A program made the position numbers and the translations under genes. Shown here in pieces: positions 12,077 through 59,399 of a stretch of DNA of 64,000 nt (positions are counted from its first letter, which is position 1; each line of letters begins with the position of its first letter). The stretch comes from Obrimoposthia wandeli (lineage: Eukaryota). The stretch spans positions 124,001 to 188,000 of the forward strand of contig CDROCS010003502.1 of the NCBI GenBank assembly GCA_977020255.1. The letters run 5' to 3'. Under the pieces are notes generated by a model. The model did no database searches and was not told where the DNA came from. It saw only the letters and a program-made list of their open reading frames with translations.

Positions 12077-12255
12077 CAGTAATTATTCACCTGTAAGGTT
12101 ATTCATTAAAACATGTTTTTGAGAGAGACCGACACCGAATCACTTATAGATGCATTATTTAAAAGCTTGGAAAGGTACTATTATAGGTGAAGCGTGAAAT
12201 TTTCGGTGACCGGACACCCTTATAGGTGGGACCCCTTATAGGTGAATAATTACTG
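12077..12255. mobile_element. Tc1/mariner-pogo-type MITE (179 bp)
   Basis: TIR CAGTAATTATTCACCT at both ends, flanked by TA on both sides; internal ccttataggtg repeats. Confidence 0.85.
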
Positions 12256-41900: not shown

Positions 41901-43462
41901 TACAATTTAAGAAAAATATCCTTTATGAATATATTCTTAGATGCCTTGACAAGCATATATTCATTACGAATTAAAAGATACGACAGTTCAATTTTCACGG
42001 TTTTATTGAAAATTTATCGTGTAATATTAGCCTTTTGTGCTTGATTTATTGAAAATAGTGTAGCAAGCAAATCAAATAAGAATGTAGCTAAATAAATTCA
42101 AATTGGAAGTTGAAGGAAAAAATCTTAAAACAGAAAGAGAAGAGAATGAAGATATGGAGAATTGGAAAGTAAAGAAAGCAAACATGAAAAATTATAATGA
42201 AAAGGTGGTATAAAGTAGAAGAAATGAGTTTGTTTCATAAACTGGAGTCACAGAATAAATCAGACAGGTTTCAAATTTCATTTATATGATAAATTATTAT
42301 GTTTATTTTATTTAGTTTTGATACTTAAAATTAGTGATTAAAATACTTTTGAACAATTATGTTTCTTGTTTGAAATACTTGAAAAATTAACGATTATTTA
42401 TAAATATAACATTCATTTTCATATTTATGCTGATTTTGATTCTAATGACTGAAATCACATTTTATAAATATAAAAATATTATTAATAAAACAGCTATATG
42501 GATAAAATCAAGAGAATTAAAGAAAATTGAAAATATAACTGATGCTTTTATATTTGGATTTAAGAGTAACATAAATTGAATGTCAGTTAAAATATTTTTA
42601 ATTAAAAAAGTAAAAATAAGAATATTGTTGGTCTACTCGATGAAAATATTACAATCAACGCCATTGATGGCGCTATGTCGAGTTATATTTTCTGAATAAT
42701 TAAATTAAAAACATACGATTTAAATAAATAATCCAACCTCATTCGTCAATTCGTGAGTATTTCCCAATCATTAGTAAACAGGTGCCTCTCGTCTTCATTT
42801 AACCAAGTGAGGAGTGAGTCCCTTGTGGTAAAGGGTCCATAGCTTTTTGGGAGAGAAGGAGTAGTTGGCATGACATCATCCACTCATCGGGGAAATGATT
42901 CAAATCTTTGTCTTCGTCCAACTCGACCAATATGTTGTCACAGATTGGTTGTGCCACAGCATTTGATAGGAGAGTCAGTGTAACTCCATCTCAATCTTCA
43001 ATGAACGGAGTCAAATAATCGTCTTCCTCCTCCTCGAGATCTTCCTATTATCAGCATCCTCAGGGTGGTCAGATTAGCGGTCGTTGAACATGTCTTCGTC
43101 CGGGTCTGGAGTGAAAACTGAGAACTTCAGTTGAGACAATATGATAAATTGCCATTGTTAGTGGCGTTTGATGGAGACGTCAAAGAAATCAAAGAGGTTG
43201 TTTCTCTTTCTCACTAGTGCCACTGATATTGTGGATTTCATCGCTGCTTCCACTGAAGTGGAAATACAGGAAATTTGAGCAGAGTTCTGCCGTGGAGTAC
43301 AGTCTTCTCAATATTCTACCAACCCCTGACTAATTATTTCGATATATTTGGATCTTTATATCCCTTTTACATCTGCGTTTCTTGTTGCACAGGAAAGAAG
43401 TCTTTATACAATTGCTCCTCGAGCTCTGCGTCCAAATTAACGTGGTTGTCGTGGGATATAAT

Positions 43463-44131
43463 AGAAGTGTAAAGTGTCGGTTCTAAAACAATAGCACACA
43501 AAGCCCCCCCCCCCCCGAACAAGGCACAAGGAACAAAGCACATCTGAAATTTGTTTAGTCATACAGATGTGCTTTGTTCCTTGTGCCTTGTTCGGGGGGG
43601 GGGCTTTGTGTGCTATTGTTTTAGAACCGACACTTTACGTCTCGAAATTTGTTTGGTCTTATGCGTCACTTACGATTATGTAGGTTAATATTCTGTAACA
43701 TTTGTATATAGTTCAAANNNNNNNNNNNNNNNNNNNNNNNNNNNNNNNNNNNNNNNNNNNNNNNNNNNNNNNNNNNNNNNNNNNNNNNNNNNNNNNNNNN
43801 NNNNNNNNNNNNNNNNNNNNNNNNNNNNNNNNNNNNNNNNNNNNNNNNNNNNNNNNNNNNNNNNNNNNNNNNNNNNNNNNNNNNNNNNNNNNNNNNNNNN
43901 NNNNAAATATGTAAATTAAAAAATTTAAATTTTAATTCAAATTAAAAAATTAAAATTTTAATTCGAAAATTAAAATTTGAAATTAAACACAATTGACCGT
44001 CCCAAATTTTTATTTGCAACTATTTAATTTACTTAGTACTGCGACCTCATTCCAGGAGTTAGACTGCCCCGCATAACCGGACAGCTATCGCAGTTTTTAT
44101 CATAAGAAACGTTATTGTTTATAGTAGGAGT
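43463..44131 (+). repeat. Left TIR of the Polinton (contains assembly gap 43718-43904)
   Basis: Reverse complement of 57455-58027, with a few substitutions and indels. Confidence 0.95.
44038..44094 (-). ncRNA. Candidate small structured RNA in left TIR (second copy 57492-57548, + strand)
   Basis: GC-rich 57-mer closed by ACTGCGA/TCGCAGT, starting 29 nt after a TATAAACAAT box and followed by AATAAA. Function is inferred only. Confidence 0.35.
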
Positions 44132-44154
44132 TTAGTAAAAAAAAAAGTCTATGT

Positions 44155-44394
44155 TTATACATAATTATATTCATTGTCACAATCCATGCTTTCTTCTTCT
44201 TCTATTTTAATGATTGTTGCAACTTTAGGTTTAAAGTCTCCATTAAACAGGTGATACATATAAAGTTCTTCAATCCTTGAGACAAAAAGTTCTGGTGCAA
44301 CAAATAAGCTAAAGTACTTTTCAGTATACTGGGCCATCAAGGTAGGGCTCAGGTTATCATAGAGAGCTTGCAATTTTTCTTTAGAAGTAGTCAT
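44155..44394 (-). CDS. Polinton hypothetical protein (79 aa from first ATG)
   Basis: Open frame MTTSKEKLQ...; a TATAAACAC variant box lies 40 nt upstream of the ATG. Confidence 0.55.
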   Translation of the reverse strand: MTTSKEKLQALYDNLSPTLMAQYTEKYFSLFVAPELFVSRIEELYMYHLFNGDFKPKVATIIKIEEEESMDCDNEYNYV

Positions 44395-44559
44395 TTGAAA
44401 TAATGAGAAATTGGTTGATTGAAATGTGTTTATATTTATAGAGAATTTGTTAAAATTATCCAATGAAATTATCCAATGAGTAGCTAGTAGGAAGTCAAGA
44501 CATGGTTATGATACATACAATGTATTAAAAATAAACATCAATAAAAATATATACATACT

Positions 44560-44625
44560 ATAGCATTAAAAATATATACATACTATTGCATTAAAAAGAT
44601 ACATACTATCACATTAAAAATAAGA
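44560..44625. repeat. ~25-bp tandem repeat x3 (aaaaatatatacatactatagcatt-like)
   Basis: Directly visible, lying between the polB end and the 79-aa ORF. Confidence 0.8.
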
Positions 44626-44673
44626 GGATATTAGTTAATACTTTCAAGAGGTTACCCCAGATTTTATATACAC

Positions 44674-47600
44674 CTATCTTAGACTATAGTGTCCATATGC
44701 GACGGATTTGTTTTTCTCAAGCCAAACCCTTTTATCGTCATAACACCTTAACGCAATTTTATCATTATACATTGTAAATATACACTGTCTTACCATATAT
44801 TGAATTATTTTTGAGTTTATAAAACTCTTTATCAAATGTAGTAGTACCCTCTGCCCGTTTCCGACTATTGATATCAATATATGTTTTAAATATAGGAGCT
44901 TGATGAAACTTTATTGCTCTATGCACTTGTTTAATTTCTGCACCCAGAAACAAGTAAAATTGTAGTAGTTGTGAGTGTATGATGTAATTATTTTTATCCT
45001 CATGGGTCATCAACAGCTTTGAAGCTTTTGAGCCGGGAGGGATTTCTCTATTAGGCGCAATCGGTAAGTCATCAAGTTTATCATGAATACTGATGGGTAT
45101 GCCTAAATCAATTTCCAACAAGTATCCATGTTCTTTAAGACTCAAGTTCTGCATATTACCGTGAATATCCCTCTTAGTTATAAGCTCAATTATCGCTTCA
45201 AAACCGTCATATACCCATGTAAAATCTGTATGTGGTAACGGTTGACTCAAGGCCCAGCCATATAAGTTATTTATGTCAATATATAGGAGGAATGTTTCAT
45301 CTGTTGTTTTAACGTAATGTTTATTGATGAAAGTCATCCCTCCCCGTATCCCTGCCTCAAACATGTTATACATTTCGGGATCATGCAATAAATCCACATC
45401 ATACTCTAATGTTTTTAATGCGCTAGCCCAACTGAGACCAGGGATACTAAAGAAATTGAGCGCCTCTAGATTATCATCATCCCTTACTTTCTGTCTAAAG
45501 GCCTCAAAAACATCACATAACAGATACACGTCAAGTTTCATATACTCAAGCATGTAGTCTTTAATAGTATTACACCCTAATACGGTCCACATCATTAGGG
45601 CTTCATTATATTGTTGATCAGTGACTCGAGAAGGAAACTCAGATTTAGCGGGTAACTGCGTCTCCATAAGCCTATCAACACCACTAATATATTCATATGG
45701 AAATACCGCCTTACTTGTGGCAATATTAGGGTTTAGGTATTGTGTAGTATAAGGGCAACTTGGCAAGTATGAAACTAAGGATTCAAGACTTGACGTTGTA
45801 AAAAGGTATGAATCAATGAATTTCAATGTCCCCCTCTTCATCTCTATACGGAGGGACATGAACTTTTCACTTGATTTAGGGATAATTGAAAAGGATTTAC
45901 CTTTCAAGTCGGCATATTTTAAAATATGATGTATATCATAACCCATAAGGTTATGAAACACCACAGGTAAAACCGGTCTCTTTGCAAACTTGCGACTTAA
46001 ATTGCATTTGTTGCATGCCGCACCCAAGTATTTACCCGTGATATGATCATGATCTCTAACCATACGATCGTTTAATTTTTTACAAAGATAGCAATTAGTG
46101 CAATCTCTAAAGTTTAACATGTCATTATTAGTAAAAACCATAGGAACATTAATACTATTTACCCAAAAATCTGCCACTTCACCATTTATCAACTCAGTTA
46201 ATTTATCTACAAAGTTTTTAGCACACTGCAGACCGTAATAACTGAAATATTGTATTGAATTATTAGTGTTGTTTTTCAAAATCATCCCTATAGATATTGG
46301 TTTATGAATGTGTTTGAAAGTATTATGTGGCTCGAGTATTGACTCAAAGTCGGCATATACAACAAATGGTGGCGCAATAGATTTAGACCAGTCGGAAAAT
46401 TGACACTTGATCTCTTTAGGCATTGTAAACAAGGTTGTTAAATCTGTATTAATATTACAATGTGCCCTGTGTTTGTCATATGAAATCGTGGTTCGAAATC
46501 CAAAAGACATTTCTCACACCAAAAGAGACGCACATTATATTTTTGAGTATTTAAAAGTCTATTCAGGTTTGTAATCCCTGTATAGTGATAATTACCGCTC
46601 TGTTCCAACAGCAACAAGTTTACTACCTTTTCGCACTGTTTAAGACTCGTTCTATAAATAACATTAACATCTGGGTTTTTAAACACTAGATGACTACTAT
46701 GAGGCTCTACCTTTGTAGGTTTATAGGAGAATACTGTTATCGCTATATTATTGAGTTTTTCAAACGCCTTGATACCGTCTATCCTCATAGGACCAGGCTC
46801 ACATATAAGTTCATTTAAATAATCATTATAGTTTTCAACTCTTTGTCTGTTTCGATTGAAATCTTTATAGTGTAGGATACTGAGAACAGCGTATTTAAAA
46901 CACTGATCATCAGTATTATTTACGTTCACTATAGATAGTGTTTTAGCAAGCGCAACCGGGGTTTTTATAAATGATGATCCTGCTACGTTTGAAAGTGCAG
47001 TAAATTTAAAGGATACCAACAGAATTTTAAATACTGACCATCCCGAACTCATATCCTTATAAATTTCAATTTTATTGTTGAGCTCAACTGTTCTTGTAGT
47101 GATAAAATCTTGTTCAAAAATATTTGCTTTACAGCTTACATGCCATGTTTTATGTTGACCCTCGTTATTGACAAATTCGGTTTCAACACCAAACTGTATT
47201 TTACAGGGACCAAACACATCTATACTGCTAGTAAGTTCAGTTAGCATAGTATCGTTAATGTATAGTTTAAGCATGTTTAATCCACTAACATCAAAAACAA
47301 GGTTTGATTGAATTGCACCTCCTATTTGATTGTTAAAAGTTAATGTATTATCTGAATTAATTGTAACAATATTATCAAAGTCATCATCCGTAATAGTTAG
47401 GAGTGAGTCGAAAAAATCATTTTCTGTTATAAACTCGTCCTGATCTATAAGTTCATCAATATTATTATTATTTAAGATTTCATTAGGGCTTAAAGGCTCA
47501 ATAATTTCTACAACTTCAGGATAAGTATCAATTTCTACAACACTATCCGGTTCCCATGAGTCTACCACATCAAACTCTTCAGTAAAATTATTAGTTTTTG

Positions 47601-48084
47601 CTATTTTATTGTTGTCTATTGTTGGTACTCTCATTACTTTACGTTTGTATGCTGACTTTTTAGACTTAAAATACGTCAGATGATCCTTATGATCATAATA
47701 AAATGTTTGATAGTCAATACAATATAACACATCACAATGTGGACAAATAAAACCGCTTTTAAATTTATAATATTTAAGCATTACACTATGACATTCTATT
47801 CCATGATTAACGTTTGTGCAATACTTGTACAATGTACATAAGTTACTTCCTCCACGAAGTTTAGGGTATACATGGATAATAGCCCCCTCATGTAAAACAT
47901 CACCGATAATAGCTTCCCTTTCAAAGGGCATGCCATTACGGTTAAAATAAATTTGATCAGTCTCAAAGACTTCATATAATTTATTTGCCAGATCTGTAAT
48001 TTTCAGACCTGGACTAATATTAATGGGTTTGCAAGACCCTAATAAATTTGCAAATATTGTTATATCTGCTGGTAGTTTTCTCAA
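44674..48084 (-). pseudogene. polB: Protein-primed family B DNA polymerase (Ubl + terminal-protein region + EndoVII-like + exonuclease + partial palm); frameshifted and internally deleted
   Basis: YADFE, RDHDHITGKYLGAACNKCN, HNLMGYD, YIDINNLYG and KNNSIYGKT motifs, plus C-terminal KIALRCYDDKR..GHY. One-base frameshift at 46502-46505; catalytic YxDTDS motif absent (junction ~44785). Confidence 0.93.
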
Positions 48085-48085
48085 T

Positions 48086-48835
48086 CTACGCAGCTTCTGA
48101 CGAAATCTTTTTCCCTTCCCTACCTTCTGTTTTAAGTTTACTTAAATCAATATTTTGATTTTTTACTTTCTTTAATTGATTAAAATATTTTTTAAACGGG
48201 ATATTTTCAAAACCCGAGTATATCTCATTTACGTTGAAATTTTCTACTGAATTAACAGGTGACCCAACAGGTGTTCCTGGTTTAAAAAGTAAGGGGTAAC
48301 CTCTTGATTTAATTAACTTATTCTGCGACCCCATTCCAGGAGTTAGACTGCCCCGCGTTACCGGGCAGCTATCGCAGTCGGGAGAATAAGATTTTATATC
48401 CCTTATATCCCCAAAAAGTTTATATAAATGAGTATCATATGGAGAATGAGAATGAGAATGAGAATGAGAAGATGAAGAAGAAGAAGGAAGTTGAGAGTGA
48501 GAAGATTTCTCAAGAGATAAAAAAACTTTTGACATTTTCTTCTTTTCATCATCATCATCATATATTGTTGTTGGCATATTCTTCTTTTTCTTCTGCTTTC
48601 GGCTTCTTTTCTTAGTAGGAGCATGGTGCGTTGAAAGCCATGGTGCGATTGATATTGGCAGTGGTGTGACACTCTGTATTGCTAAATTAAATTAAAAATA
48701 ATAATAATAATAATCAAAATTACCTTTCTTCACAGGTGTCGCATCCAAGTCGACATCATCATCATCATCATCATCGACTGCAGGCTTCACTGTCCATTGT
48801 TTATTGCTGTTGTAAGCAAAAATAATTTTTGACAT
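48086..48835 (-). CDS. Spliced Polinton hypothetical protein, 235 aa (exons 48835-48724, 48681-48086; additional 5'-UTR intron 48879-48836); low-complexity, acidic and NLS-like basic tracts
   Basis: A 42-nt GT-AG intron joins MSKIIFAY...PVKK in frame to the 163-aa ORF; a 44-nt gtaagt...ttag intron ends immediately before the ATG. Confidence 0.7.
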
Positions 48836-49260
48836 CTAAAAAAAAATAATAAAAATAAAAATAAAATCAAAATACTTACTTTTCGAAATTGTGAATGAAA
48901 TTGATAAATGACACTACACTGATTGTTTATATATCGTTCACAATCAGTGTAGTTGCTGCCCTAGATGTACACGTCACACATCACGTGTGTACTTACAAAC
49001 TAGGAATGCGTAATAAAGACTCTTTATTCCCTAGTTGCTACACACGTGATCATAAAGGTTAATTACGGTCAATCAATTATGAATATTTTCATAACCGATA
49101 TTCACACCGTTAAACTTTAAATTTTTAAAAATAATTAACACCATTAATTTTCTCTTAATTAGTAGATTTTAAATCTATTTTTTAATTTATCAAAACTCAA
49201 ATTTTTTTTAATTTCGATGGGACAGCTATTTATAAAACAAATACGATTTTGAATACAAAT

Positions 49261-49266
49261 TTTATT
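49261..49266 (-). terminator. Probable polyadenylation signal (AATAAA) for the structural-gene block
   Basis: Lies ~35 nt downstream of the protease stop, at the start of the only long intergenic gap in the block. Confidence 0.45.
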
Positions 49267-49297
49267 ACCAATCAACACAAATAAAAAGGTTTGACAT

Positions 49298-49678
49298 TTA
49301 TATAGTTTGATCATACAACCATAAGATACATAGTGGACCGCAATTAGTAGTCAGTGGGTTTTGAGAACGAATTTTGTTGTAATATACATGTTTTCCTTGA
49401 GACTCTACATGCTTGATAAGTTTTCCCGGATAGTATACTCCAAGAGGGTCATACACATGTACAGAATTCCGTCTCACGAATAACGCAATCCAGTGTTCTC
49501 CAGGAAGATTTGAGGTATGTGTATTGACAATATATCCCCCAGGCGTTAATGTTGGGATTTTTTCCAACGGGTATACACCCTTAAATCGCGGTCCGAGCAG
49601 CAAACTAGTTATTTCATTCACCTGAACAGTACTTGTTGTTAATAAAATCTTAAAACATAAATTAAAAACTCACTTCAT
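49298..49678 (-). CDS. Adenain-like (adenovirus-type) cysteine protease, spliced, 112 aa (exons 49678-49674, 49631-49298)
   Basis: IVNT...PGEHWIAL and Q....NCG motifs. A 42-nt gtgagt...aag intron restores the typical MNT.Q...FKGVYP N-terminus; the ATG overlaps the capsid stop (ATGA). Confidence 0.9.
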
Positions 49679-50898
49679 ACAATCACACGTCGGCCTTTAG
49701 TTATTTCAAACTCAGAATCAAAAATCCCGTAAATCAGTACGTTTGTTGGGACTGTTAATGACTTGTGAAACTTGATGTCAAGGCGTAAATTACCCTGTTT
49801 TGCTAATTGGTTTTGCGTGATATCAAAGTCAGGGGCTAAAACAAACGTGAAAAATGGATATTTGGTTTCGAATTCATCCAGTGATACGCCATTGTTTATA
49901 TTCTTATCCAAATTACCCATATTTCTAATGATAGATTGGACATATGCAAAGGTGGTTTCACCTGTTTCAAAGTTTGTACTGTAATATTCGTTAAAATCAC
50001 TGTTTCTAGCAAGACTGATAGTGTTAACATTAGAATGATCGAATGTTGAAGAGTCTGTAGCACCATTACCGATAAGTTTTTCACCTGCTTGCAACGTAAT
50101 CAACACAAATTTAGGCAATTGTTCATCATCAAACACTTGATCCTTGTAAAAACTCGTAGAACCGATGGCTAAGGTATGATACATTAGCTTTCTGCGAGTA
50201 TAGGGATATACAGCATTCCTAGATTCAAGACCAATATTATGTCCCATTAAAACATCATTCTCAACTCTGACTCTTCTGACTTTAAGTTTAGCTTCAATAA
50301 ATATGATTCGCGCTAGAGTCGTTCCGTAGTTCAGACAAAACATAGATTTATTAGGTACAAGTCTTACCATGATAGACACACCAGGTAAGAGATACTTTGG
50401 TTGCTCAAAAATATCAGATCGAAGAGTCCCACACAAGTCAATTTCTTTTGAGCGAGCAGCCCAACCTTTACGCTTATCATCATCATCATCATAACCTATA
50501 CTCGACAAACAAGTGTCTTTAGTGTCTGTGCTATAGTTTAGTATGGTTTCAATCATAGCTTTTTGTGCATATTGAGGATGGGTTTCTACTACAGTATTAT
50601 TCATTGTTATATCTATGCTTTTAAATAGGGAATGCATCAAGAAATTTGATGGGACCACATTATCTGCAACAGCTATTTCTGTACCATCAGTTTTCGTTAC
50701 TTTAATTTTCACAAACAACAAGGTATCATTCAAATCTAAGTACTCAATATCTGAACCTTGGATTTTAAACAGAATCTCTGATGTTCTTGTTCCGGTAATA
50801 TTGTTTGTTGGATATATATCTTCAAAGCTACCATTATTTACAACTACCTGGGGCAAAGCTCGATCAAAAATACATAATTCAGATTTACCACAAGCCAT
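49675..50898 (-). CDS. Major capsid protein (Polinton PY, double jelly-roll; F54H12.2-like)
   Basis: KSEL..F, EYLDLNDTLL, FLMHSLF and LRSDIFEQPKYLLPGV motifs typical of Maverick MCP; 407 aa. Confidence 0.82.
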   Translation of the reverse strand: MACGKSELCIFDRALPQVVVNNGSFEDIYPTNNITGTRTSEILFKIQGSDIEYLDLNDTLLFVKIKVTKTDGTEIAVADNVVPSNFLMHSLFKSIDITMNNTVVETHPQYAQKAMIETILNYSTDTKDTCLSSIGYDDDDDKRKGWAARSKEIDLCGTLRSDIFEQPKYLLPGVSIMVRLVPNKSMFCLNYGTTLARIIFIEAKLKVRRVRVENDVLMGHNIGLESRNAVYPYTRRKLMYHTLAIGSTSFYKDQVFDDEQLPKFVLITLQAGEKLIGNGATDSSTFDHSNVNTISLARNSDFNEYYSTNFETGETTFAYVQSIIRNMGNLDKNINNGVSLDEFETKYPFFTFVLAPDFDITQNQLAKQGNLRLDIKFHKSLTVPTNVLIYGIFDSEFEITKGRRVIV

Positions 50899-50900
50899 TA

Positions 50901-51308
50901 TTAAGCAAATATTGTACCTTGTTTTCTTCGTTTGTTTATACTAAATGCTTTCTTTCTACCACTACCCTCTTGCTTTTTAGTTTCGGGTTCAACCGTTTGT
51001 GCTGCTTCACTTGCTTTACGTTTACGTCGATTTTTAATAATTTTAACAACTGTACCAAAAGCTTCCTTAGCCTCCGGTATGGCTCCGGCAACTTCCCCTA
51101 GTGCATGTTGTTTAAGCATTGGTAACACAGATTTGTTGTTCATTATTACATCTTGAACTGTTTTAACTCCAACACGACCTAATCTTTTCAGTATAGGGAA
51201 TGCTAACCGCCCCAATGTTTTCAACCATCCCGAACCGTACTGTTTACCTACAAAATATGGTAATTCACCACCTTGTTGAGGTCCACTAAATGTCTCAATT
51301 ATATTCAT
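50901..51308 (-). CDS. Small Polinton core/virion protein (135 aa from first ATG) with QxGG/QxGxG sites and an amphipathic helix
   Basis: QQGG, QYGSG followed by WLKTLGRLAFPILKRLG, QEGSG, basic C-terminus. Confidence 0.7.
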   Translation of the reverse strand: MNIIETFSGPQQGGELPYFVGKQYGSGWLKTLGRLAFPILKRLGRVGVKTVQDVIMNNKSVLPMLKQHALGEVAGAIPEAKEAFGTVVKIIKNRRKRKASEAAQTVEPETKKQEGSGRKKAFSINKRRKQGTIFA

Positions 51309-51344
51309 AACTGTAATGGACAACTATTTTTGAATACAGATTGT

Positions 51345-52481
51345 TTATACCTGATCTATACAACGGACATGTATGGTAAGGGATACTTTTGCATTGTTGG
51401 AAAAACTTATTGGCACACCTGCATCGTTTCTAATATTAATTTCAATGTTTGAGATTACATTTGATGCTAAAGGGATATACATGGGTCTGTATATTGCGAT
51501 ATTAACCGTGTCTCCTGGTGCTTTATTTTTATCTAACCATATAGATTTTAATAAGGGTATCATTTGACCTCCAACGTTTACAGGTTCACACAGACTAGAA
51601 TACAAGTACATGTGATCAAACTCGTAATTTAATCGAGGTAGTCCAGACCCGTTGCCCGTAAATCGTGATTTATCTAACCCTAATACATACATTAAACGTT
51701 GATCAAATCCAATATGCTCAATTCCATTCTTTAATACAAATTTTATTAGCTTATCATTATCATCAATATAAAATCTTTTAAATATGACGTCGCATTTAGA
51801 TTTAATGTATGCTACTAATGCATTTACATTATTATTATTTAAATCTTCTGTAAATACAATTTTCTTGTTGTATGAACCGGTTTTATAATGCATATATTGT
51901 AAATTATGTGCACTGCAATCAGGTCTGATAGACGTTGATCCAAGTAAAACTCCTTTATCATCAGACTCGAAACCTTCTGAAGTTAATGTATTGAAAATGA
52001 ATCCTAATTCATTTTTAGCGTCAACATCCATCTTGATATAGAATTTTTTGTTGTTGACGGATTTTATTAGTACAACATTATCCTTTTTATCAATACCTAC
52101 ACCAACTGTGCTTAAGGAAATAGAAAGCTTTGCAATCTTATCTTTAGACGTGACGGTGAGTTTTGATATTTTATTAATTGTCTTTTTAATAACTTTTGGT
52201 TCTGATTTATCACCATGCAATTGCGGTTCTTTCTTTTCTACTTCTACTTGAGTATGAATTACTGATAAAGATATTTGATCAGTCTGTTGATTGGAGAATT
52301 TAATAGAATAATTAATTTCACTGCCCTTATTTAAAATAACAGGAGTGTTTGTGTACGTAAATTCAGTTAATGCCGCCTCCCATTTACCATTTAACGTAAT
52401 TGGATTCTCCCAATCTACAGTGAATAATGAAGCCATATTATTAGGTTGAGTTTTCGGACAACTATTACTCGGTAAAATCAT
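51345..52481 (-). CDS. Minor capsid protein (penton, Polinton PX)
   Basis: LPSNS......N..S.F.......I.L.G.WE.AL.E N-terminus and YLYSSL.EPV.VG...PLL C-terminal motif. Confidence 0.78.
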   Translation of the reverse strand: MILPSNSCPKTQPNNMASLFTVDWENPITLNGKWEAALTEFTYTNTPVILNKGSEINYSIKFSNQQTDQISLSVIHTQVEVEKKEPQLHGDKSEPKVIKKTINKISKLTVTSKDKIAKLSISLSTVGVGIDKKDNVVLIKSVNNKKFYIKMDVDAKNELGFIFNTLTSEGFESDDKGVLLGSTSIRPDCSAHNLQYMHYKTGSYNKKIVFTEDLNNNNVNALVAYIKSKCDVIFKRFYIDDNDKLIKFVLKNGIEHIGFDQRLMYVLGLDKSRFTGNGSGLPRLNYEFDHMYLYSSLCEPVNVGGQMIPLLKSIWLDKNKAPGDTVNIAIYRPMYIPLASNVISNIEINIRNDAGVPISFSNNAKVSLTIHVRCIDQV

Positions 52482-53512
52482 ATAGAAATCTCTATCTGGC
52501 TTGCTTTGATCCCTGTTGATTCAGAATATCCATGCCACTTTACGAGATATTGTTTATTCTTACCACGGCCTTTAGATTTTACGACTTCTTGGATACGGAA
52601 AAGTGTAGGTTTATCAATTACTTGTAGTTCAGGTTCATAAAATTTCCCTGTTATTACATTACAGTCATCATCAACTATAGAGTACATTACAGGATTTGCA
52701 CGTTTGTCTATTTTCTCTATCCTAAACACTTCATCACTCCAATTCTGATCAAAGTTTTTAATAAAGGGGCTACCACTAAACTTTGATATCCGAACATAAT
52801 CACCAGTCTTATGTTTAGGTTTATTAACTTTATCGACTTGATTACGACTCAACCAAATTTCCATTGCATTTTTATCATTAATATCGACAGGTCTCAATCC
52901 GTCTAAACCTCTATGCTTACTGTGATTGTATGAAGTCATTACTTTTGGTAAAACGTCAACCCATCTTTTATTGCCTTGTGCAATAAAATGTCTTTTTAAT
53001 CGATCTCTCAATGTTCTATTAAACCTTTCAACTAGGGCAGCTTTGAATTGTGAAACTACAGAGTAATGTTCAATATTTAATTTTTTAAATAAACTACCTA
53101 CATTTTTGTTGTAAAACTCTTTACCCTTATCAGTTTGCACATGTATGGGGACAGTTTTATCAGTCATTATACTTAGAGCAGCCTCTATATCCTTACCTGA
53201 TTTAGATTTTACAGGTAATGCACGCGCATACCTTGTAAACACGTCAATACATGTTAAAATATACTTGTTACCATCATTGATACTTGCATATGGTATCATT
53301 TCCATCAAATCGGCCTGCCATAAATCGTTAGGACCACTTGTTCTGTATGCTCGAGTCGGGAACTTCCGCTTCATTGGCTTGTTTAGACTGTATGCTAGCT
53401 GATTGCTCAGCCATTTCTGAGTTTTCTTTTGAGTCGATTGACTTCTTAATGATAGTTTGCCAATGCCGCTGTACCCAGCTGGGTTTTCGGGATCGTACCA
53501 TATCGTTTCCAT
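52478..53512 (-). CDS. int: Retroviral-like DDE integrase with C-terminal chromodomain-like region
   Basis: WQADL, QTDKGKEF and VERFNRTL catalytic triad; C-terminal QYLVKWHGY. Confidence 0.96.
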   Translation of the reverse strand: METIWYDPENPAGYSGIGKLSLRSQSTQKKTQKWLSNQLAYSLNKPMKRKFPTRAYRTSGPNDLWQADLMEMIPYASINDGNKYILTCIDVFTRYARALPVKSKSGKDIEAALSIMTDKTVPIHVQTDKGKEFYNKNVGSLFKKLNIEHYSVVSQFKAALVERFNRTLRDRLKRHFIAQGNKRWVDVLPKVMTSYNHSKHRGLDGLRPVDINDKNAMEIWLSRNQVDKVNKPKHKTGDYVRISKFSGSPFIKNFDQNWSDEVFRIEKIDKRANPVMYSIVDDDCNVITGKFYEPELQVIDKPTLFRIQEVVKSKGRGKNKQYLVKWHGYSESTGIKASQIEISI

Positions 53513-53563
53513 TACAACAATTGAATTTAAAATCGATGTTTGGTATGTTATTACCCATTTTGT

Positions 53564-53893
53564 TTATGAGTTTATCAATTTTGCAATCAAAGGAGATACT
53601 AAAGTAGCAATTATAGGTATTAATGCACCGATAAAACCACCTTTTTGTTTTAGAATTACTCTACGTTTACCAGTTTTACTTTTAGTATTCACTAAATCAA
53701 GTAAAGCTTTTTGATGTTTTCTAAGGTTATGTTTATGATTACCGATTTTTACAGTACCTTTTGTAATATTAAACAAGACTTCAACCAACTTATCAATAAC
53801 AAAGGGTGGAAATGACTTGAGTATACGTTGTCTATATATGCTTGGAGCCTTGATTAAAGCCTGAAAGTAGGGAAGTATAGATTTTGATAACAT
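53564..53893 (-). CDS. Basic virion protein with adenovirus pX/mu-like hydrophobic C-terminus
   Basis: QKGG|FIGALIPIIATLVSPLIAKLINS resembles adenoviral pX (RGG|ILPLLIPLIAAAIG). Confidence 0.65.
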   Translation of the reverse strand: MLSKSILPYFQALIKAPSIYRQRILKSFPPFVIDKLVEVLFNITKGTVKIGNHKHNLRKHQKALLDLVNTKSKTGKRRVILKQKGGFIGALIPIIATLVSPLIAKLINS

Positions 53894-53924
53894 GTTTAAT
53901 GAATTAAACTATTTGCAATATTGT

Positions 53925-54236
53925 TTATAGTTTAATCCATTTACCAACTAGTTTATTTACACGCTTTTTATCCGACTTCTTAACCGACTTTCCAACTGCT
54001 TTCTTAACAGGTTTCTTCTTTAATGGTTTCTTTTTTACAGGTTTTCTCTTTACTGTCTTTACCGATTTCTTTAATGATTCATCGACTACTTTACGCTGAT
54101 GAAGCACTGATTTAATAAGATTTTTAATATGAGCATTCTTCTTTAACATCAATTTGTTATCATTAGCGTGTAATTTATCACCCGGTCTCCATTTAGGTCC
54201 AACTCCACTAGGCATTGTTTCTTTCATAAATGACAT
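53925..54236 (-). CDS. Lysine-rich, probably DNA-condensing core protein (103 aa from first ATG)
   Basis: KKSVKTVKRKPVKKKPLKKKPVKK tract. Confidence 0.6.
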   Translation of the reverse strand: MSFMKETMPSGVGPKWRPGDKLHANDNKLMLKKNAHIKNLIKSVLHQRKVVDESLKKSVKTVKRKPVKKKPLKKKPVKKAVGKSVKKSDKKRVNKLVGKWIKL

Positions 54237-54238
54237 GA

Positions 54239-54886
54239 TTAACAAGTAGATAGGCTTTTCTTTTGTTTATATACAAAATCATTATTGAAAATATCGGTTC
54301 TCACGCGTAAATCGTCTGGACATTCCTGTGTAAAATCTAAAAACAAGTATCCATGAGGGTTAGTTGTTGCATCTTGAAATGCGTCAATCAAATATTGCTT
54401 ATTACAAGGGAAAGCTTGACGGGCAACAAAGTCGATAACCGTTTGATCTCGCGGATTTTTAAATAATACTAGATAATGTACATTTAAATTCCGAGTACGG
54501 TGTTGACCGCCTTGATGAAAAAGATTTTGAGTGATAAAAATCACTGTTACATTTCTATGTCTAGCTATTTTGGTAAACAGGTTATTAAAACCCGACTCTT
54601 TATTTGCTTCATCAAACAAATCATCAATTACAATGACATCTCCTGAATTTAACCTCTCAGACCATTTATTATCAAAACCATTAATAAAATGAATACCCTT
54701 CAATTTACCTAATTCTGTTCGTGTTAGACCAGATTCACCTACACCTCCGTAATGCCAGTATATTCTACTAAACTTTTGATTAAACATGATTTTATTTTGA
54801 AGTAATTTAGTTACAAAATGTGTTTTCCCACTCCCACTAGGTCCTACTATTTGGTAAACCGCGTTATTTTTAAGTTTTATCATCAT
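54239..54886 (-). CDS. A32/FtsK-like genome packaging ATPase
   Basis: Walker A GPSGSGKT, Walker B VIVIDDL, RH..........TQN, and R...LN..Y.VLFKNPRD. Confidence 0.95.
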   Translation of the reverse strand: MMIKLKNNAVYQIVGPSGSGKTHFVTKLLQNKIMFNQKFSRIYWHYGGVGESGLTRTELGKLKGIHFINGFDNKWSERLNSGDVIVIDDLFDEANKESGFNNLFTKIARHRNVTVIFITQNLFHQGGQHRTRNLNVHYLVLFKNPRDQTVIDFVARQAFPCNKQYLIDAFQDATTNPHGYLFLDFTQECPDDLRVRTDIFNNDFVYKQKKSLSTC

Positions 54887-54916
54887 CAATAATAATAAAT
54901 CAAAAGAAACGATTGT

Positions 54917-55183
54917 TTATATACGTTTTATTAATATATACAACAACAGAGAATTAAAAATTGATGCAGAAAAGGTTATATACATCATGTTTGAACGATT
55001 AATTTGAACAAATTTTTCAAAATCCTTAATCCGTTTGATATCTCTATAGACATGGGTGCAAACAATTTCCTTTATATTATTACGAGAAAGTCCATCAAAA
55101 CTAGAAAAGTATTGAACTCCATTTATTGTTCCGTTTATAATTTCCTCGACTGCATCATCAACTAATTTATCGTTTTCATCCAT
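54917..55183 (-). CDS. Polinton hypothetical protein (88 aa, hydrophobic C-terminus)
   Basis: Tightly packed ORF with a TATAAACAAT box 31 nt upstream. Confidence 0.6.
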   Translation of the reverse strand: MDENDKLVDDAVEEIINGTINGVQYFSSFDGLSRNNIKEIVCTHVYRDIKRIKDFEKFVQINRSNMMYITFSASIFNSLLLYILIKRI

Positions 55184-55201
55184 TTATATAAATCATAAAT
55201 T

Positions 55202-56101
55202 TCAATTGTTTATACCATGAAATTTTACATTTCTTACTCTCCGTTCGATCAGACATCTGCATACTGGACATGAATGTAACATTCTAGAACATGATATACA
55301 TGTATTTACATGTCCACAAGGGAGAAATACTACTTCAATATGATTATTTAAACATACTACACATTCGGGTACCTTTAAAATGTATGAAAGTATATTTATA
55401 TATTGTTTTTCAGGTTTCATTTCTAAATTAGATAAATCACAAAGCAATTCAAATAGTGAATTGTATTCACCATATCGCATCATTTTATATTTTAAAACAG
55501 ATTTTATTCTATCTTTTGTGAAAAACTTTTTCAAATATCTGATTTGGTTTGTATCCATCAACATATCGAATTTCTCGATAGTCAATGGATATTCAATTAT
55601 ACAATCTGTTTCGATTTTCTCAATAACATTAGCCTCATTATAGGGTCCTAAACATTTTGAATAGCATATATCAGGTAATTTTATATCAATATCTGATACA
55701 TGTACTTTTCCAATCAATGGTGATGTATCAAAATCGATTTTCTTGTTCATAGTTTCAATTATTGATACATTTGAAACATTTAACTTTAAAAGAAATGGAC
55801 ATGTAGGAAAAAATTTCATATGTTGCTTCATTGGTTTAAGATACCATTCCCATTCGGATAACGCACCTTGACAGTATATACATTTTACTTTATCGGTTGA
55901 ATCATCATCATGTTTATAAAATCCGGCTTTAGCTAAATCATTTACAGATTGTTTCCCTTTAAAATTTATAATTAATGATCTTAATCTTTCACTTTCACGT
56001 CTATATTTCCAGTGTAAAACTTTCATTCTAGAATAACCTACTTTTCGTCTAACTAAAACATCATCAACAGTTGTATAATGAAGTATATAATCAACTAGCA
56101 T
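55202..56101 (-). CDS. iap: Inhibitor of apoptosis (single BIR + C-terminal RING)
   Basis: BIR: R..S...LAKAGFY...C-x2-C-x16-H-x6-C. RING: CVVC...FLPCGH..C..C......CPVCR. Confidence 0.93.
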   Translation of the reverse strand: MLVDYILHYTTVDDVLVRRKVGYSRMKVLHWKYRRESERLRSLIINFKGKQSVNDLAKAGFYKHDDDSTDKVKCIYCQGALSEWEWYLKPMKQHMKFFPTCPFLLKLNVSNVSIIETMNKKIDFDTSPLIGKVHVSDIDIKLPDICYSKCLGPYNEANVIEKIETDCIIEYPLTIEKFDMLMDTNQIRYLKKFFTKDRIKSVLKYKMMRYGEYNSLFELLCDLSNLEMKPEKQYINILSYILKVPECVVCLNNHIEVVFLPCGHVNTCISCSRMLHSCPVCRCLIERRVRNVKFHGINN

Positions 56102-56142
56102 TTCAAATCATGTAAGAATAAAATTCAACTAAAATTTATTGT

Positions 56143-56635
56143 TTATATCAAAAGTAAAATATCAGTTATTATCAAAGTCACATCAAAGTGATAATCCAAA
56201 TCCTTGAGACCGAGTATGACCACTTTCCCGCTTGCAAATATGTTGACGCATAGAGGATTGTGTTTTGTAAACCTTAAAGCAGGAAACAACTCAGGTTCGA
56301 ACATGCACGCAGCTCCACACTTTTGAGACAACTTGTATAGGTTCACCTTCTTACCTAAATCGACAGTAACCGTTACTGATTGAATACGATCAATCTTTAT
56401 TCTAAATGGACACTTGAGCAAAGTTGTAGTAATAGGTTTCTTGCAACCCATTATCCTGCATGCTCCTAATAATAACTAACTAACTAACTAACATAAAAAA
56501 CATACCTGAACGGAAGATTATAAGGGTATAATCCTTACACCTGTGCACGTACTGACATGGTTTCCCGGTTTTGAAGGGTAAGTGACTGATGTCTCCTTTA
56601 ACTTTACCTTTATAATTAATATTTGCAAGATTCAT
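56143..56635 (-). CDS. TATA-binding-protein-like protein, 150 aa, spliced (exons 56635-56506, 56465-56143)
   Basis: Repeat 2: VTVDLGKKVNL...FEPELFPAL...P...NIFASGKVVILGLK. Repeat 1: LANI...LIIFRSGACRIMGCK, completed by removing a 40-nt gtatgt...ttag intron. Confidence 0.85.
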
Positions 56636-56758
56636 GATTGAATTGATGGAAATAACCCAATCTATATATAAAATTTTTAAGCTAAAGATTATCCAATCAG
56701 AATCGAGTATGATATATATATAAGCTACCACTTTTGGTATAGAATTCATTATTTTGAT

Positions 56759-57406
56759 ATGAACTCTAAACAAACTAAATCTCTTAAGTTCGAGAAGCCA
56801 CCACCAACAAGGCTTACAGACACAGATGTGGATACCGATGATGATGATGTAGTTTTTATATCAAAACCAAAGAAGCAAACTATGACAAGCAACAACCATA
56901 AACAAACCAAGACTATCAAGATTGAGAAGCAAGCAACAAATGAGGATCTCTTTATTGATGATATAGTCTCTACACCCAAACATAAGAAACCGTTCAACAA
57001 TAAACCATCAGATGTAATATTTGAGTCTAACGATTTGAAGTACACCAAGCCGGTTATGTTTTATAACTGGCAAATGAATTTTGAAGACTCAATCATATAT
57101 GGATTCATGTTTCCGGTGGCTCTGAATAAGTCAAAATACGATTTCAAGATACATAGATTAAATCCGTCAGATATTGATGATCTTAACAAAACTTTTGAGT
57201 CGATGCATCTCAACATTATAGTTGGGAATCATATAATAATTCGAGCTGATCCTAATCTTTTCAAGCGAGATCACGACTTTAATGTTGACAATATGGGAAC
57301 TGGACTCAAGTGGATGATCGTCATTTCAATACAGGGATACAAAATCAACTGTACAGGTCTTCATAAACCAATCTGGAAAATTACTGATGGACAAGTTCGC
57401 TTATAA
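56759..57406 (+). CDS. Polinton hypothetical protein (215 aa), transcribed divergently from the TBP-like gene
   Basis: Clean ATG-stop ORF with a disordered N-half and a beta-rich C-half. Confidence 0.75.
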   Translation: MNSKQTKSLKFEKPPPTRLTDTDVDTDDDDVVFISKPKKQTMTSNNHKQTKTIKIEKQATNEDLFIDDIVSTPKHKKPFNNKPSDVIFESNDLKYTKPVMFYNWQMNFEDSIIYGFMFPVALNKSKYDFKIHRLNPSDIDDLNKTFESMHLNIIVGNHIIIRADPNLFKRDHDFNVDNMGTGLKWMIVISIQGYKINCTGLHKPIWKITDGQVRL

Positions 57407-57454
57407 TTGTACTAATATATATTTATCGATGTTACTTTGCTTTCTTCAATATAG

Positions 57455-58027
57455 ACTCCTACTATAAACAATAACGTTTCTTAAGATAAAAACTGCGATA
57501 GCTGTCCGGTTATGCGGGGCAGTCTAACTCCTGGAATGAGGTCGCAGTACTAAGTAAATTAAATAGTTGCAAATAAAAATTTGGGACGGTCAATTGTGTT
57601 TAATTTCAAAATTTTAATTTTTAATTTTCATATTTAATTTTCGAATTAAAATTTTAATTTTTTAATTTTCATATTTAATTTGAATTAAAATTTAAATTTT
57701 TTAATTTCCATATTTAATTTTTTAATTTTTAAATTTTAAATTTTAAATTTTTAAATTTTGAATATTTAAATTTTTGAACTATATACTTAATGTTACAAAA
57801 TATTAACCTACATAATCGTAAGTGACGCATAAGACCAAACAAATTTCGAGACGTAAAGTGTCGGTTCTAAAACAATAGCACACAAAGCCCCCCCCCCGAA
57901 CAAGGCACAAGGAACAAAGCACATCTGTATGACTAAACAAATTTCAGATGTGCTTTGTTCCTTGTGCCTTGTTCGGGGGGGGGGGGCTTTGTGTGCTATT
58001 GTTTTAGAACCGACACTTTACACTTCT
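57455..58027 (-). repeat. Right TIR of the Polinton (573 bp)
   Basis: Reverse complement of 43463-44131. Confidence 0.95.
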
Positions 58028-59399
58028 TATAATGATGGGAAAATAATAATGAAAATAATATAATTATCGTAATTATTTATCGTCCAATAGAAACAGGGTA
58101 TTCAATTTTAAAAAAGGGGGGGTGAGTAGAAGAAATAGTAGGTAAATGAAAAAGAATTTGTATGTCTTGAAAAGGGAAAAATATTTTAAAAGCCATAGCA
58201 ATTTTGTATATGAATATAAAAAGATTCTCACGATTCTTACTATCACATCATATATTGCTAGGCCCTGCGTGGTCTCTGTGCGAAGCGATAGCAGTTAGAG
58301 TGCGGTTTTTGGGTGCTTTTAAAACTCTCAGATGGTATAACAATGCATTTTCGTTCTGAGTAGGGTAGGGGCTCAGATGTTTTTAATTCTTTGTAAAAAA
58401 CACTTAGACCTTACATTTTTGCATATAATACGTTTTATAAAGTCTCGTATAAGGTACAATCGGTAAACGTGAGGACTTATATAGTATCACCAAGATATGT
58501 GGGAAATCTCAGAAGTTAGCCTTTAAACTGCTCTTATGCGGTAGATAAATGTTTGTATTTCTCAGTTTAAAAATTCTCAATGTATATATTTTACATACAA
58601 GGATGAAATTTCACTCCATACACATGTGCATATAGACACATGCATATACACACACCTACGGTTTTAAAGGACATATGTGTGCCTTCTCCCTATTCCACTA
58701 AGATGAGTTAGATTAGACAGGACACATCATCTACTGAAGGTCTCGAGTCTAGCGGTGGTTGTTTTTAACTTAGTTTAGAGTTTGGGTAGATATTTTGAGG
58801 TTGATCTTAGTTTATGTTGTTTTGGTTGATAATTAGGTCTGATCATGGTACGGGATATGTTGATAATTAATTGCGGACTGAGCATTTGAATGAATTTGAT
58901 TTGGCCACTTAGTCTTGACGAATATATAATGTACTTTGAGTGCTTCGTATTTTATGTACGTATTTAATAAGCAGATATGAATGAGTTGTTCCTAGTTCAA
59001 ATTTCAATTTGTTTAATTTCATTTTCTCACTCATAATGGTAACTTTTTAACATGTTTTTTTGGATAGATGAGTAAGTGTTGTTCTTTATATTTCTCATAT
59101 TTCAAACCGACAACACGTTTATTTAAAACAAAATACCTTTATAAATAACTTAAATGCATAGGGTTACCATCCGAACACATTTCAACAATTTCATTGGTTA
59201 GTACCATTGTAACATTGTCCATCTTTTGTGACATCACAAAGTCACACCAGCGCTAAATCGGTTAAAATAAATTTTGAATTAACTTCTCATCCCAATATCA
59301 TTTCTCTTTTAATACGTTGCTATCTTTCTTATTAAATAGAAATAAAGAAATAAAGAAAAATCAACGATGAGTTCAGAACTTTTATTGTACTGCTGAAAT

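Follow-up and report, generated by a model that had tools for sequence, protein, structure and literature searches.

A spliced TBP-like protein and a matching TATAAACA box suggest a built-in switch for virus-particle genes in a Polinton

The analysed window, a stretch of 64,000 nucleotides from Obrimoposthia wandeli, contains a 14.6-kb Polinton (43463-58027) with terminal inverted repeats that start with AGAAGT and a 6-bp target-site duplication, TATAAT, at 43457-43462 and 58028-58033. Its genes are listed below from right to left.

56759..57406, plus strand: 215-aa ORF, head-to-head with the TBP-like gene
56506..56635, minus strand: TBP-like exon 1, 130 nt; reduced repeat 1 (N69 and F116 kept, F99 = Pro, H1 shortened)
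56466..56505, minus strand: TBP-like intron, 40 nt, phase-1 GT-AG
56143..56465, minus strand: TBP-like exon 2, 323 nt; end of repeat 1 and full repeat 2
55202..56101, minus strand: IAP-like ORF (BIR and RING, from Pfam)
54917-55183, minus strand: 88-aa ORF
54239..54886, minus strand: A32-like packaging ATPase (from Pfam); its C-terminal Tyr-Lys-Gln codons bear the box of the following gene
53925-54236, minus strand: basic 103-aa ORF
53564-53893, minus strand: conserved 109-aa ORF; weak Adeno_PX match, below cut-off
52478..53512, minus strand: rve integrase with chromodomain (from Pfam)
51345..52481, minus strand: 378-aa ORF, putative minor capsid protein
50901-51308, minus strand: 135-aa ORF, presumably PW-like
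49675..50898, minus strand: 407-aa putative major capsid protein (weak Pfam match)
49298..49678, minus strand: putative maturation protease with a candidate short 5' intron (by eye)
44765..48141, minus strand: region of the protein-primed B-family polymerase (pPolB; from Pfam)
44155-44394, minus strand: 79-aa ORF

Pfam identifies the pPolB (PF03175, E = 1.5e-23), which in this copy lies in two frames with a break near 46438-46510 and ends early, as well as the integrase (PF00665, E = 2.6e-12) and the ATPase (PF04665, E = 4.7e-7). The putative major capsid protein matches the double-jelly-roll-like families PF21738 (E = 8e-4) and PF16903 (E = 0.024), both below cut-off. The 378-aa ORF has no relevant Pfam match and we take it to be the minor capsid protein from its position and general knowledge; the PW-like label of the 135-aa ORF is likewise our assumption, as is that of maturation protease, which draws on position and on motifs judged by eye. 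An Rfam scan of the element returned nothing above gathering score. Each terminus contains a near-perfect hairpin of ~170 nt (43469-43638 and 57853-58021), which is unusual for a simple protein-primed end. In the host flank, ORFs at 36211-38373 (minus strand) resemble the reverse transcriptase of a non-LTR retrotransposon, as judged by eye.

The host genome (G000) holds at least 150 scored matches to exon 2 of the TBP-like gene, all of those listed being 100% identical in protein, and 19 of the 20 fetched ends of Polinton copies lie at different genomic sites; together these point to a recent spread of the family. A distant ATPase query matched only the window's own Polinton family in the host genome and thus yielded no family lacking TBP. 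Alignment searches of viral contigs with the ATPase and capsid proteins found no relative, and the phage collection gave no ATPase match. The integration sites bear on one conceivable role of the TBP-like protein, that of guiding the integrase to TATA-like host sites, which we find hardly credible. The duplication of the window copy does read TATAAT and the flank ends in TATA at 4 of 19 other ends, but the 19 flanks, from 20 copies with one end read per copy, are diverse and merely AT-rich, so that TATA-directed integration is not supported.

The TBP-like gene is encoded in two exons, whose junction was predicted originally from two short ORFs that fuse into a 150-aa protein on removal of a 40-nt GT-AG intron. 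The coordinates are confirmed: the spliced gene has 150 codons and a stop, and intronless relatives join the two halves at this point. Exon 2 scores well above the threshold of the Pfam TBP family (PF00352, E = 2.9e-13, 49.9 bits against a cut-off of 22.9) and matches solved TBPs (E = 4e-13). Exon 1 by itself matched no Pfam family, and over its full length it aligns with the N-terminal region of homologues that lack the intron. Searching with exon 2 produced 82 candidates, 76 of them homologues; 57 of the 76 were aligned, and the near-full-length ones run unbroken across the exon junction.

The intron also recurs across copies and families. It measures 34-43 nt and is always GT..AG in the window and 30 other copies, where it occurs in all three phases (8, 5 and 18 copies, n = 31). 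Exon 1 is 130 nt long with at most one difference in 29 of these 30 copies; they were chosen for an identical exon-2 protein, so that conservation of exon 2 among them is by construction. Twenty further host-genome loci comprise nine in the intronless family, one in the window's family and ten in two other families, of which nine show a break at the same site and one is partial. A GT donor in the same phase is present in seven of eight loci inspected, L060 having GA. In the TBP genes of the host itself the introns are about as long (stretches of 47 and 48 nt) and interrupt the gene at a different position. As read from these sequences, the 40-nt intron of the TBP-like gene is thus well supported. 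Four sequencing runs of one sample cover the locus evenly and very deeply, in the manner of genomic DNA, with no joint at the intron among the rows listed and the intron itself passed over as a repeat. Three more candidate GT-AG introns of 42-44 nt are seen on the minus strand, at ~49673-49632 (protease start) and at ~48879-48836 and ~48723-48682 (region before a 163-aa ORF), and they resemble the host TBP introns in size.

To describe the protein we use yeast TBP numbering, with Ser 159 of repeat 2 and Phe 190 of E-L-F-P as anchors. The human Phe numbers quoted in the original prediction follow an older numbering, the E-L-F-P Phe being residue 288 of the 339-aa chain. A structure model was made for the intronless homologue P0012 from a 56-row alignment (pLDDT 96.3). 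It superimposes on human TBP with a best Z of 13.2 (root-mean-square deviation 2.7, 148 of 150 residues aligned), and TBPs as a group score Z 11-13 against 6.6 for the first non-TBP fold. Viral TBP-like structures are matched with E down to 5e-9 at 8-20% sequence identity; BcRF1 reaches only E = 1.8e-3 in the structure search. The proposal that the product has a TBP fold is borne out both by the Pfam score of exon 2 and by this model of a homologue.

The main departures from a canonical TBP are in repeat 1. Comparison of 56 homologues with host TBP reveals an H1 segment ~9 residues shorter and an H2 linker 11-13 residues shorter, and in the P0012 model repeat 1 has no helix as long as four residues, none occurring ahead of residue 82. 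H1 and H2 are absent in both alignment and model, in line with the shortening of repeat 1 noted earlier; in cellular TBP their surfaces are used by TFIIA, TAF1, Mot1/BTAF1 and Brf1. Among these homologues N69 is kept in 55 of 56 and F116 in all 56, whereas V71 is Asn in 52, F99 is Pro in 54 (and in the window), V122 is Arg in 55 and T124 is Met in 56. Residue 114, a Leu in TBP, is Ile in 29, Val in 17 and Leu in 10. In repeat 2, N159 is Ser in 54 of 56 and V161 is Thr in 51 of 56. In the window, the end of repeat 1 in exon 2 shows the same Arg 122 and Met 124 and the loss of H2.

Repeat 2 was counted in 55 homologues that match the anchor pattern. The TFIIB stirrup is invariant (Glu/Asp 186, Glu 188 and Leu/Ile 189, each 55/55) and P191 is kept in 48 of 55; exon 2 of the window retains E186, E188, F190, P191 and F207. 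The expected Phe pattern, with both Phe in repeat 2 and only the second in repeat 1, is therefore present. The remainder of the repeat-2 face is altered: I194 is Arg in 53 of 55, V203 is Cys and L205 is Asn in all 55, and T215 is mostly Leu. The protein belongs to the TBP fold family as a non-canonical form that has lost F99 and both H1 and H2. As judged from the alignments, its DNA face is rebuilt in both halves, with the new residues fixed, and the TFIIB stirrup is kept.

The family is conserved beyond this genome. A profile search returned 57 representatives (E up to 1e-30), and of 55 metagenome loci with a homologue, 23 lie near a Polinton core gene, 12 have only a homologue of the 215-aa neighbour and 20, mostly short, have neither. 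Among 33 intronless genes, 28 pairs give a median dN/dS of 0.195 (0.11-0.45). By sequence, the gene belongs to a selected, conserved family found in related Polintons. A quick tree of 162 rows, which left out proteins below 135 or above 300 aa as well as three in four of the first 76 and held few cellular TBPs, splits off 11 canonical-type sequences on a branch of 0.98 (SH-aLRT 100); these include host TBP, a host TRF-like protein and the TBP of Polinton L136. The tree and the differing intron position in the host genes reject a recent capture of host TBP, and with homologues in related Polintons they agree with the earlier expectation of an element gene conserved in other copies.

Ten longer family members (P0155, P0158, P0165, P0170, P0172, P0180, P0194, P0195, P0202 and P0212) keep the length of H1 and H2, yet all ten have Pro 99, Arg 122 and Met 124. 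This indicates that the change of the face came before, or independently of, the loss of the helices. The distant Polinton L136 encodes a 185-aa TBP (11568-12122, minus strand) that has two repeats, retains H1, H2 and a canonical face and groups with the host-like sequences in the tree; from its sequence it is probably a separate TBP capture, and the upstream regions of L136 favour ordinary TATAAAA words. The Polinton-type contigs L135-L138 are filed in bacterial metagenome-assembled genomes, most likely through binning contamination. Viral contigs scanned for TBP yielded a single locus, L061, which is a contig of a large virus and has a TBP of the canonical type. In the host, several TBP paralogues are present on contigs C238, C968, C60 and C1092 (L031-L040), including two divergently oriented TBP genes on C238, along with intronless or divergent TRF-like genes. 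A search for host TFIIB returned fragments, with a Brf-like look in the four loci inspected.

The region between the TBP-like gene and its head-to-head neighbour carries ordinary TATA elements on both strands.

56663..56670, minus strand: canonical TATA box, 35 nt before the TBP-like start; putative early promoter
56713..56724, plus strand: canonical TATA run, 42-46 nt before the 215-aa ORF

Across elements, a canonical TATA precedes the TBP gene in 25 of 41 cases against 14.4 expected, a modest excess, and these boxes cluster at 33-47 nt, a distance similar to that of the TATAAACA box described below. The C-terminal part of the 215-aa neighbour is, by structure modelling, probably a single-strand-binding OB fold of the T7 gp2.5 type, which makes up its top four structure matches (Z 6.4-6.9, middling; the best with root-mean-square deviation 3.1 over 105 aligned residues). 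By analogy, such a fold would be as expected of an early replication gene. The pPolB is preceded by a canonical box in L135, by no such box in the L117 group and by a TATAAACA box in the window. In L135 (3300-3860, minus strand) the pPolB region opens with a short, apparently spliced, C2H2-zinc-finger-like exon behind a canonical TATAAAAG box.

The other genes of the window element are associated with a different word. The element has 13 copies of TATAAACA on its sense strand and a single one on the opposite strand, as compared to 7 on both strands in 49 kb of flank, and seven of the boxes lie 31-46 nt before an ATG.

56140..56147, minus strand: TATAAACA box, 46 nt before the IAP ORF; shares bases with the stop codon of the TBP-like gene
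55207..55214, minus strand: TATAAACA box, 31 nt before the 88-aa ORF
54914..54921, minus strand: TATAAACA box, 35 nt before the packaging ATPase
54264..54271, minus strand: TATAAACA box, 35 nt before the basic 103-aa ORF
53922..53929, minus strand: TATAAACA box, 36 nt before the conserved 109-aa ORF
53561..53568, minus strand: relaxed box with C at position 1, 56 nt before the integrase
52551..52558, minus strand: relaxed box with A at position 1, within the integrase and 77 nt ahead of the 378-aa ORF
51342..51349, minus strand: TATAAACA box, 41 nt before the 135-aa ORF
50933..50940, minus strand: TATAAACA box within the 135-aa ORF and 42 nt ahead of the major capsid ORF
49893..49900, minus strand: TATAAACA box within the capsid ORF and ~220 nt ahead of the candidate protease start
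48924..48931, minus strand: TATAAACA box before the region with two candidate short introns that leads to the 163-aa ORF upstream of pPolB
44427..44434, minus strand: TATAAACA box, 40 nt before the 79-aa ORF
57463..57470, plus strand: outward-facing TATAAACA copy in the right terminal repeat; mirror copy at 44116-44123, minus strand

The original prediction treated the TBP-like gene as isolated cargo and missed this putative promoter system, in which TATAAACA precedes most element genes. A GC-rich unit of ~56 nt lies in both terminal repeats (57492-57547, plus strand, and 44040-44095, minus strand) and once internally (48323-48378, minus strand). It starts ~29 nt past the outward-facing box, or ~46 nt past a related box in the internal copy, and is predicted to form a closed multi-stem fold (z -2.6 and -2.3) with no Rfam match; it could be a small RNA or a replication element.

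The same arrangement is found in related elements, where TATAAACA stands strand-specifically 30-100 nt before the ATPase, the capsid module and several small genes. With near-duplicates removed, it precedes the ATPase in 13 of 19 cases (0.7 expected), the 109-aa ORF in 10/10, the 135-aa ORF in 9/9 and the major capsid ORF in 11/13, as against the TBP gene in 1/41; antisense boxes in these upstream counts number zero. The integrase (2/10 strict, 5/10 relaxed), the 378-aa ORF (4/10 strict, 9/10 relaxed) and the IAP ORF (one of two families) conform less well. Where the box falls inside a coding region it is kept at the codon level in these sequences. With duplicate rows removed, box codons are used at 14 of 14 Tyr-Lys-Gln sites of the ATPase, at 8/8 Ile-Asn sites near the end of the 135-aa ORF and at 9/9 near the end of the 378-aa ORF, as compared to 0/8 at other Ile-Asn sites in the same stretch. 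The box for the 135-aa ORF lies at -41 in the window and -33 in L064 instead of the usual -96 to -99, a shift that argues for a DNA element rather than a constraint on the protein.

TATAAA is also a variant polyadenylation signal. The motif overlaps the stop codon in five of the 14 window genes and two copies point outwards past the outermost genes, inside the terminal repeats. In several genes the 100 nt past the stop contain neither AATAAA nor ATTAAA. The motif could on these grounds be mainly a transcript 3'-end signal, or an end signal and promoter combined, with the TBP-like gene unrelated to it. We consider this quite unlikely, since the motif lies ~100 nt inside the 378-aa ORF in nine homologues and 33-78 nt inside the 135-aa ORF in eight, where cleavage would cut the frame. 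In addition, the distance to the next ATG is 32-48 nt for the ATPase and 109-aa ORF whatever the upstream gene, and the invariant C is not part of the polyadenylation hexamer.

The forkhead consensus is RYAAAYA, which the ATAAACA of the motif fits, and 59 sense-strand copies lie upstream of 111 ORFs. That the box serves as a binding site for a host forkhead factor, with the TBP-like gene doing something else, is nevertheless very unlikely: other forkhead variants show no enrichment (GTAAACA, two sense and one antisense), the motif is strand-specific (46 versus 0) and a 5' T is present at 54 of 68 sites.

The distinguishing base of the box is the C at position 7, found at 56 of 72 upstream TATAAA sites versus 13 of 145 in host flanks. 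In 12 elements with the short TBP, the box precedes 55 of 111 ORFs. It precedes 2 of 21 ORFs in L136 and L137, of which L136 has the canonical-face TBP, 1 of 83 in eight loci with integrase and pPolB in which no TBP was found, and 1 of 87 in nine other integrase loci, all these controls being distant, partial contigs whose TBP gene could lie past the contig end. The co-occurrence of gene and box rests on one clade and is a single evolutionary contrast.

On such variants cellular TBP has to form Hoogsteen C-G pairs if a clash with a Leu is to be avoided (PMC4402545; Patikoglou 1999, cited through PMC4402545 and PMC8643651), a point in favour of a dedicated reader of the box. A cellular TBP might also use it. 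Structure 1QN3, which is titled "C(-25) variant", indicates that host TBP can bind the C7 form, and in a plant assay TATAAACG retained 27% of TATAAATA activity (PMC10005294), a reduction that also counts for a dedicated reader. The box might then be a weak TATA element for host TBP/TFIID, perhaps read by one of the several host TBP paralogues, with the viral protein as a decoy or helper and not its selector; it could titrate TFIIB or host TBP regulators or repress host TATA promoters. The TFIIB stirrup being the best-kept canonical surface and the loss of one of four Phe would suit a decoy. We regard this explanation as unlikely, because a decoy does not need novel residues fixed over the whole DNA-facing sheet, selection for C at position 7 even in coding regions is hard to explain with host TBP, and elements that lack this TBP gene have almost no such boxes.

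The position of the variant base can be compared with the altered protein face. TBP reads the 5' half of its box with the C-terminal repeat and the 3' half with the N-terminal one (PMC1636458), its second Phe pair intercalating between bases 7 and 8 (PMC1935006). The box thus differs at position 7, under the most altered repeat, and it is on this basis that we propose a viral TBP selecting it. The protein had been expected to still read 5'-TATA with altered 3' specificity. The 3' part of that expectation matches the element box with its C at position 7; the 5' part holds less well, since repeat 2 is not unchanged and has Arg, Cys and Asn at 194, 203 and 205. These three residues set specificity at base 2 in the yeast mutant TBPm3 (PMC1636458, available text).

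On sequence, the changed repeat-2 face would allow either binding orientation. If repeat 2 sat on the C:G end, the protein would read TGTTTATA on the other strand and form a non-standard initiation complex. The TBPm3 positions are changed almost without exception (Arg 53/55, Cys 55/55, Asn 55/55), and position 2 is a G when the box is read on the opposite strand, reminiscent of the TGTA read by TBPm3 (PMC1636458, available text). However, the only intact TFIIB stirrup is on repeat 2, which in this orientation would point Pol II away from the genes (PMC1636458), and the boxes are strictly on the sense strand upstream of ATGs. Reversed binding therefore seems rather improbable to us.

Our preferred explanation, to which we assign a probability of roughly 60%, is that an early-made viral TBP reads TATAAACA and drives the late genes, as herpesvirus TATT-binding proteins do. 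Beyond the gene, its fold, its conservation and the distribution of the box, we infer the following steps. The spliced, selected TBP variant would be the promoter-specificity factor of this Polinton lineage. Host TBP/TFIID would first transcribe the TBP-like gene and its head-to-head SSB-like neighbour from ordinary TATA boxes. The 150-aa protein would then bind TATAAACA through its rebuilt concave face, with the altered repeat 1 (F99 to Pro, V71 to Asn, V122 to Arg, T124 to Met, L114 to Ile, Val or Leu) on the 3' half accepting the C:G pair at position 7, which cellular TBP would handle poorly. The intact stirrup of repeat 2 (E186, E188, L189) would bring in host TFIIB and Pol II, and loss of H1 and H2 would remove the surfaces for TFIIA, TAF1, Mot1/BTAF1 and Brf1, allowing escape from normal TBP control. 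As a result, the ATPase, capsid-module, integrase and small genes would be turned on as a later class. The TBP-like protein and its matching box suggest, in short, a built-in switch for virus-particle genes.

Several observations fit this scheme poorly. The integrase and 378-aa ORF match it loosely, the early/late split is unclean (a TATAAACA box before pPolB in the window; an IAP box in one of two families), no change from Leu to a small residue is fixed at 114, and the box overlaps stop codons and has outward-facing copies in the terminal repeats. A stronger version, in which one stripped 150-aa TBP suffices to redirect host Pol II via TFIIB to a private TATAAACA box, is conceivable from the sequences, though we lean against it. 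If true, a regulated particle-gene programme would have a one-protein late switch that evolved separately from the herpesvirus complex with its six proteins, and nature would have provided an orthogonal pair of TBP and promoter.

The element itself shares with Polintons, Mavericks and adintoviruses terminal inverted repeats, a 6-bp duplication, pPolB, integrase, ATPase, a putative capsid module and IAP cargo (PMC8502044 and PMC8097293, available portions). Vertebrate Mavericks are reported there to be intronless, whereas the window element has several short introns, some of them candidates. 'TBP' appears as one map-legend label in Fig. 5 of PMC8502044, for related elements mostly from non-animal datasets; the portions available of that paper and of PMC8097293 yielded no analysis of the labelled TBP or of promoters. 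No mention of TBP or TATA was found in the available text of PMC11131425, PMC8097293 and 10.64898/2026.06.19.733378. In the open-access literature covered, we found no description of this TBP family or box in Polintons. The TBP-like gene is real and conserved, and what is new here is the strand-specific TATAAACA box before the ATPase, capsid-module and several small genes. According to 10.64898/2026.06.19.733378, it is not known how integrated animal Polintons activate their capsid genes, and no virions have been seen. If these elements had a specificity factor of their own, together with a separate class of promoters, this would speak for a staged viral programme, and the boxes give exact sites for 5'-end mapping.

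The protein shares with cellular TBP and TRF (PF00352) the two-repeat saddle, N69, F116, F190, P191, F207 and the E-P-E-L-F-P stirrup. It differs from them in the shortening of the H1 region (~9 aa) and H2 linker (11-13 aa), Pro at 99, fixed polar substitutions on the DNA face and a long branch from host TBP. TBPm3 (I194F, V203T, L205V; PMC1636458, available text) is changed at the same three positions. The Polinton TBP has Arg, Cys and Asn instead, and its changes are natural and family-wide and extend into repeat 1. For the TBP field it would be a natural test of which parts of the saddle are dispensable and of how C:G is read at position 7.

Many giant viruses, mirusviruses and poxviruses with TBP-like proteins carry their own RNA polymerase. 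Their proteins, such as poxvirus VITF-3, are also virus-encoded TBP folds (PMC12917281, available text). The closest functional parallel is with the TBP mimics of beta- and gamma-herpesviruses (KSHV ORF24, EBV BcRF1 and HCMV UL87), which act at a TATT late box (PMC6541308 and PMC4893493, available portions). In both cases a nuclear DNA virus without its own RNA polymerase combines a TBP-fold protein with a one-letter variant of the TATA box before structural genes. The herpesvirus mimics, as described in those portions, are large, bind Pol II directly, need five partners and use a variant at position 4. The Polinton protein is a stand-alone 150-aa protein with clear Pfam TBP similarity and an intact TFIIB stirrup, and its box is TATAAACA, with C at position 7, not TATT; no Pfam match to homologues of the partners (ORF18, 30, 31, 34 and 66) was found among the 16 element ORFs scanned. 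By analogy, the Polinton system would work most like the herpesvirus TATT-binding system without being a member of it, and would represent a second, independent arrival at the strategy of pairing a variant TBP with a variant box.
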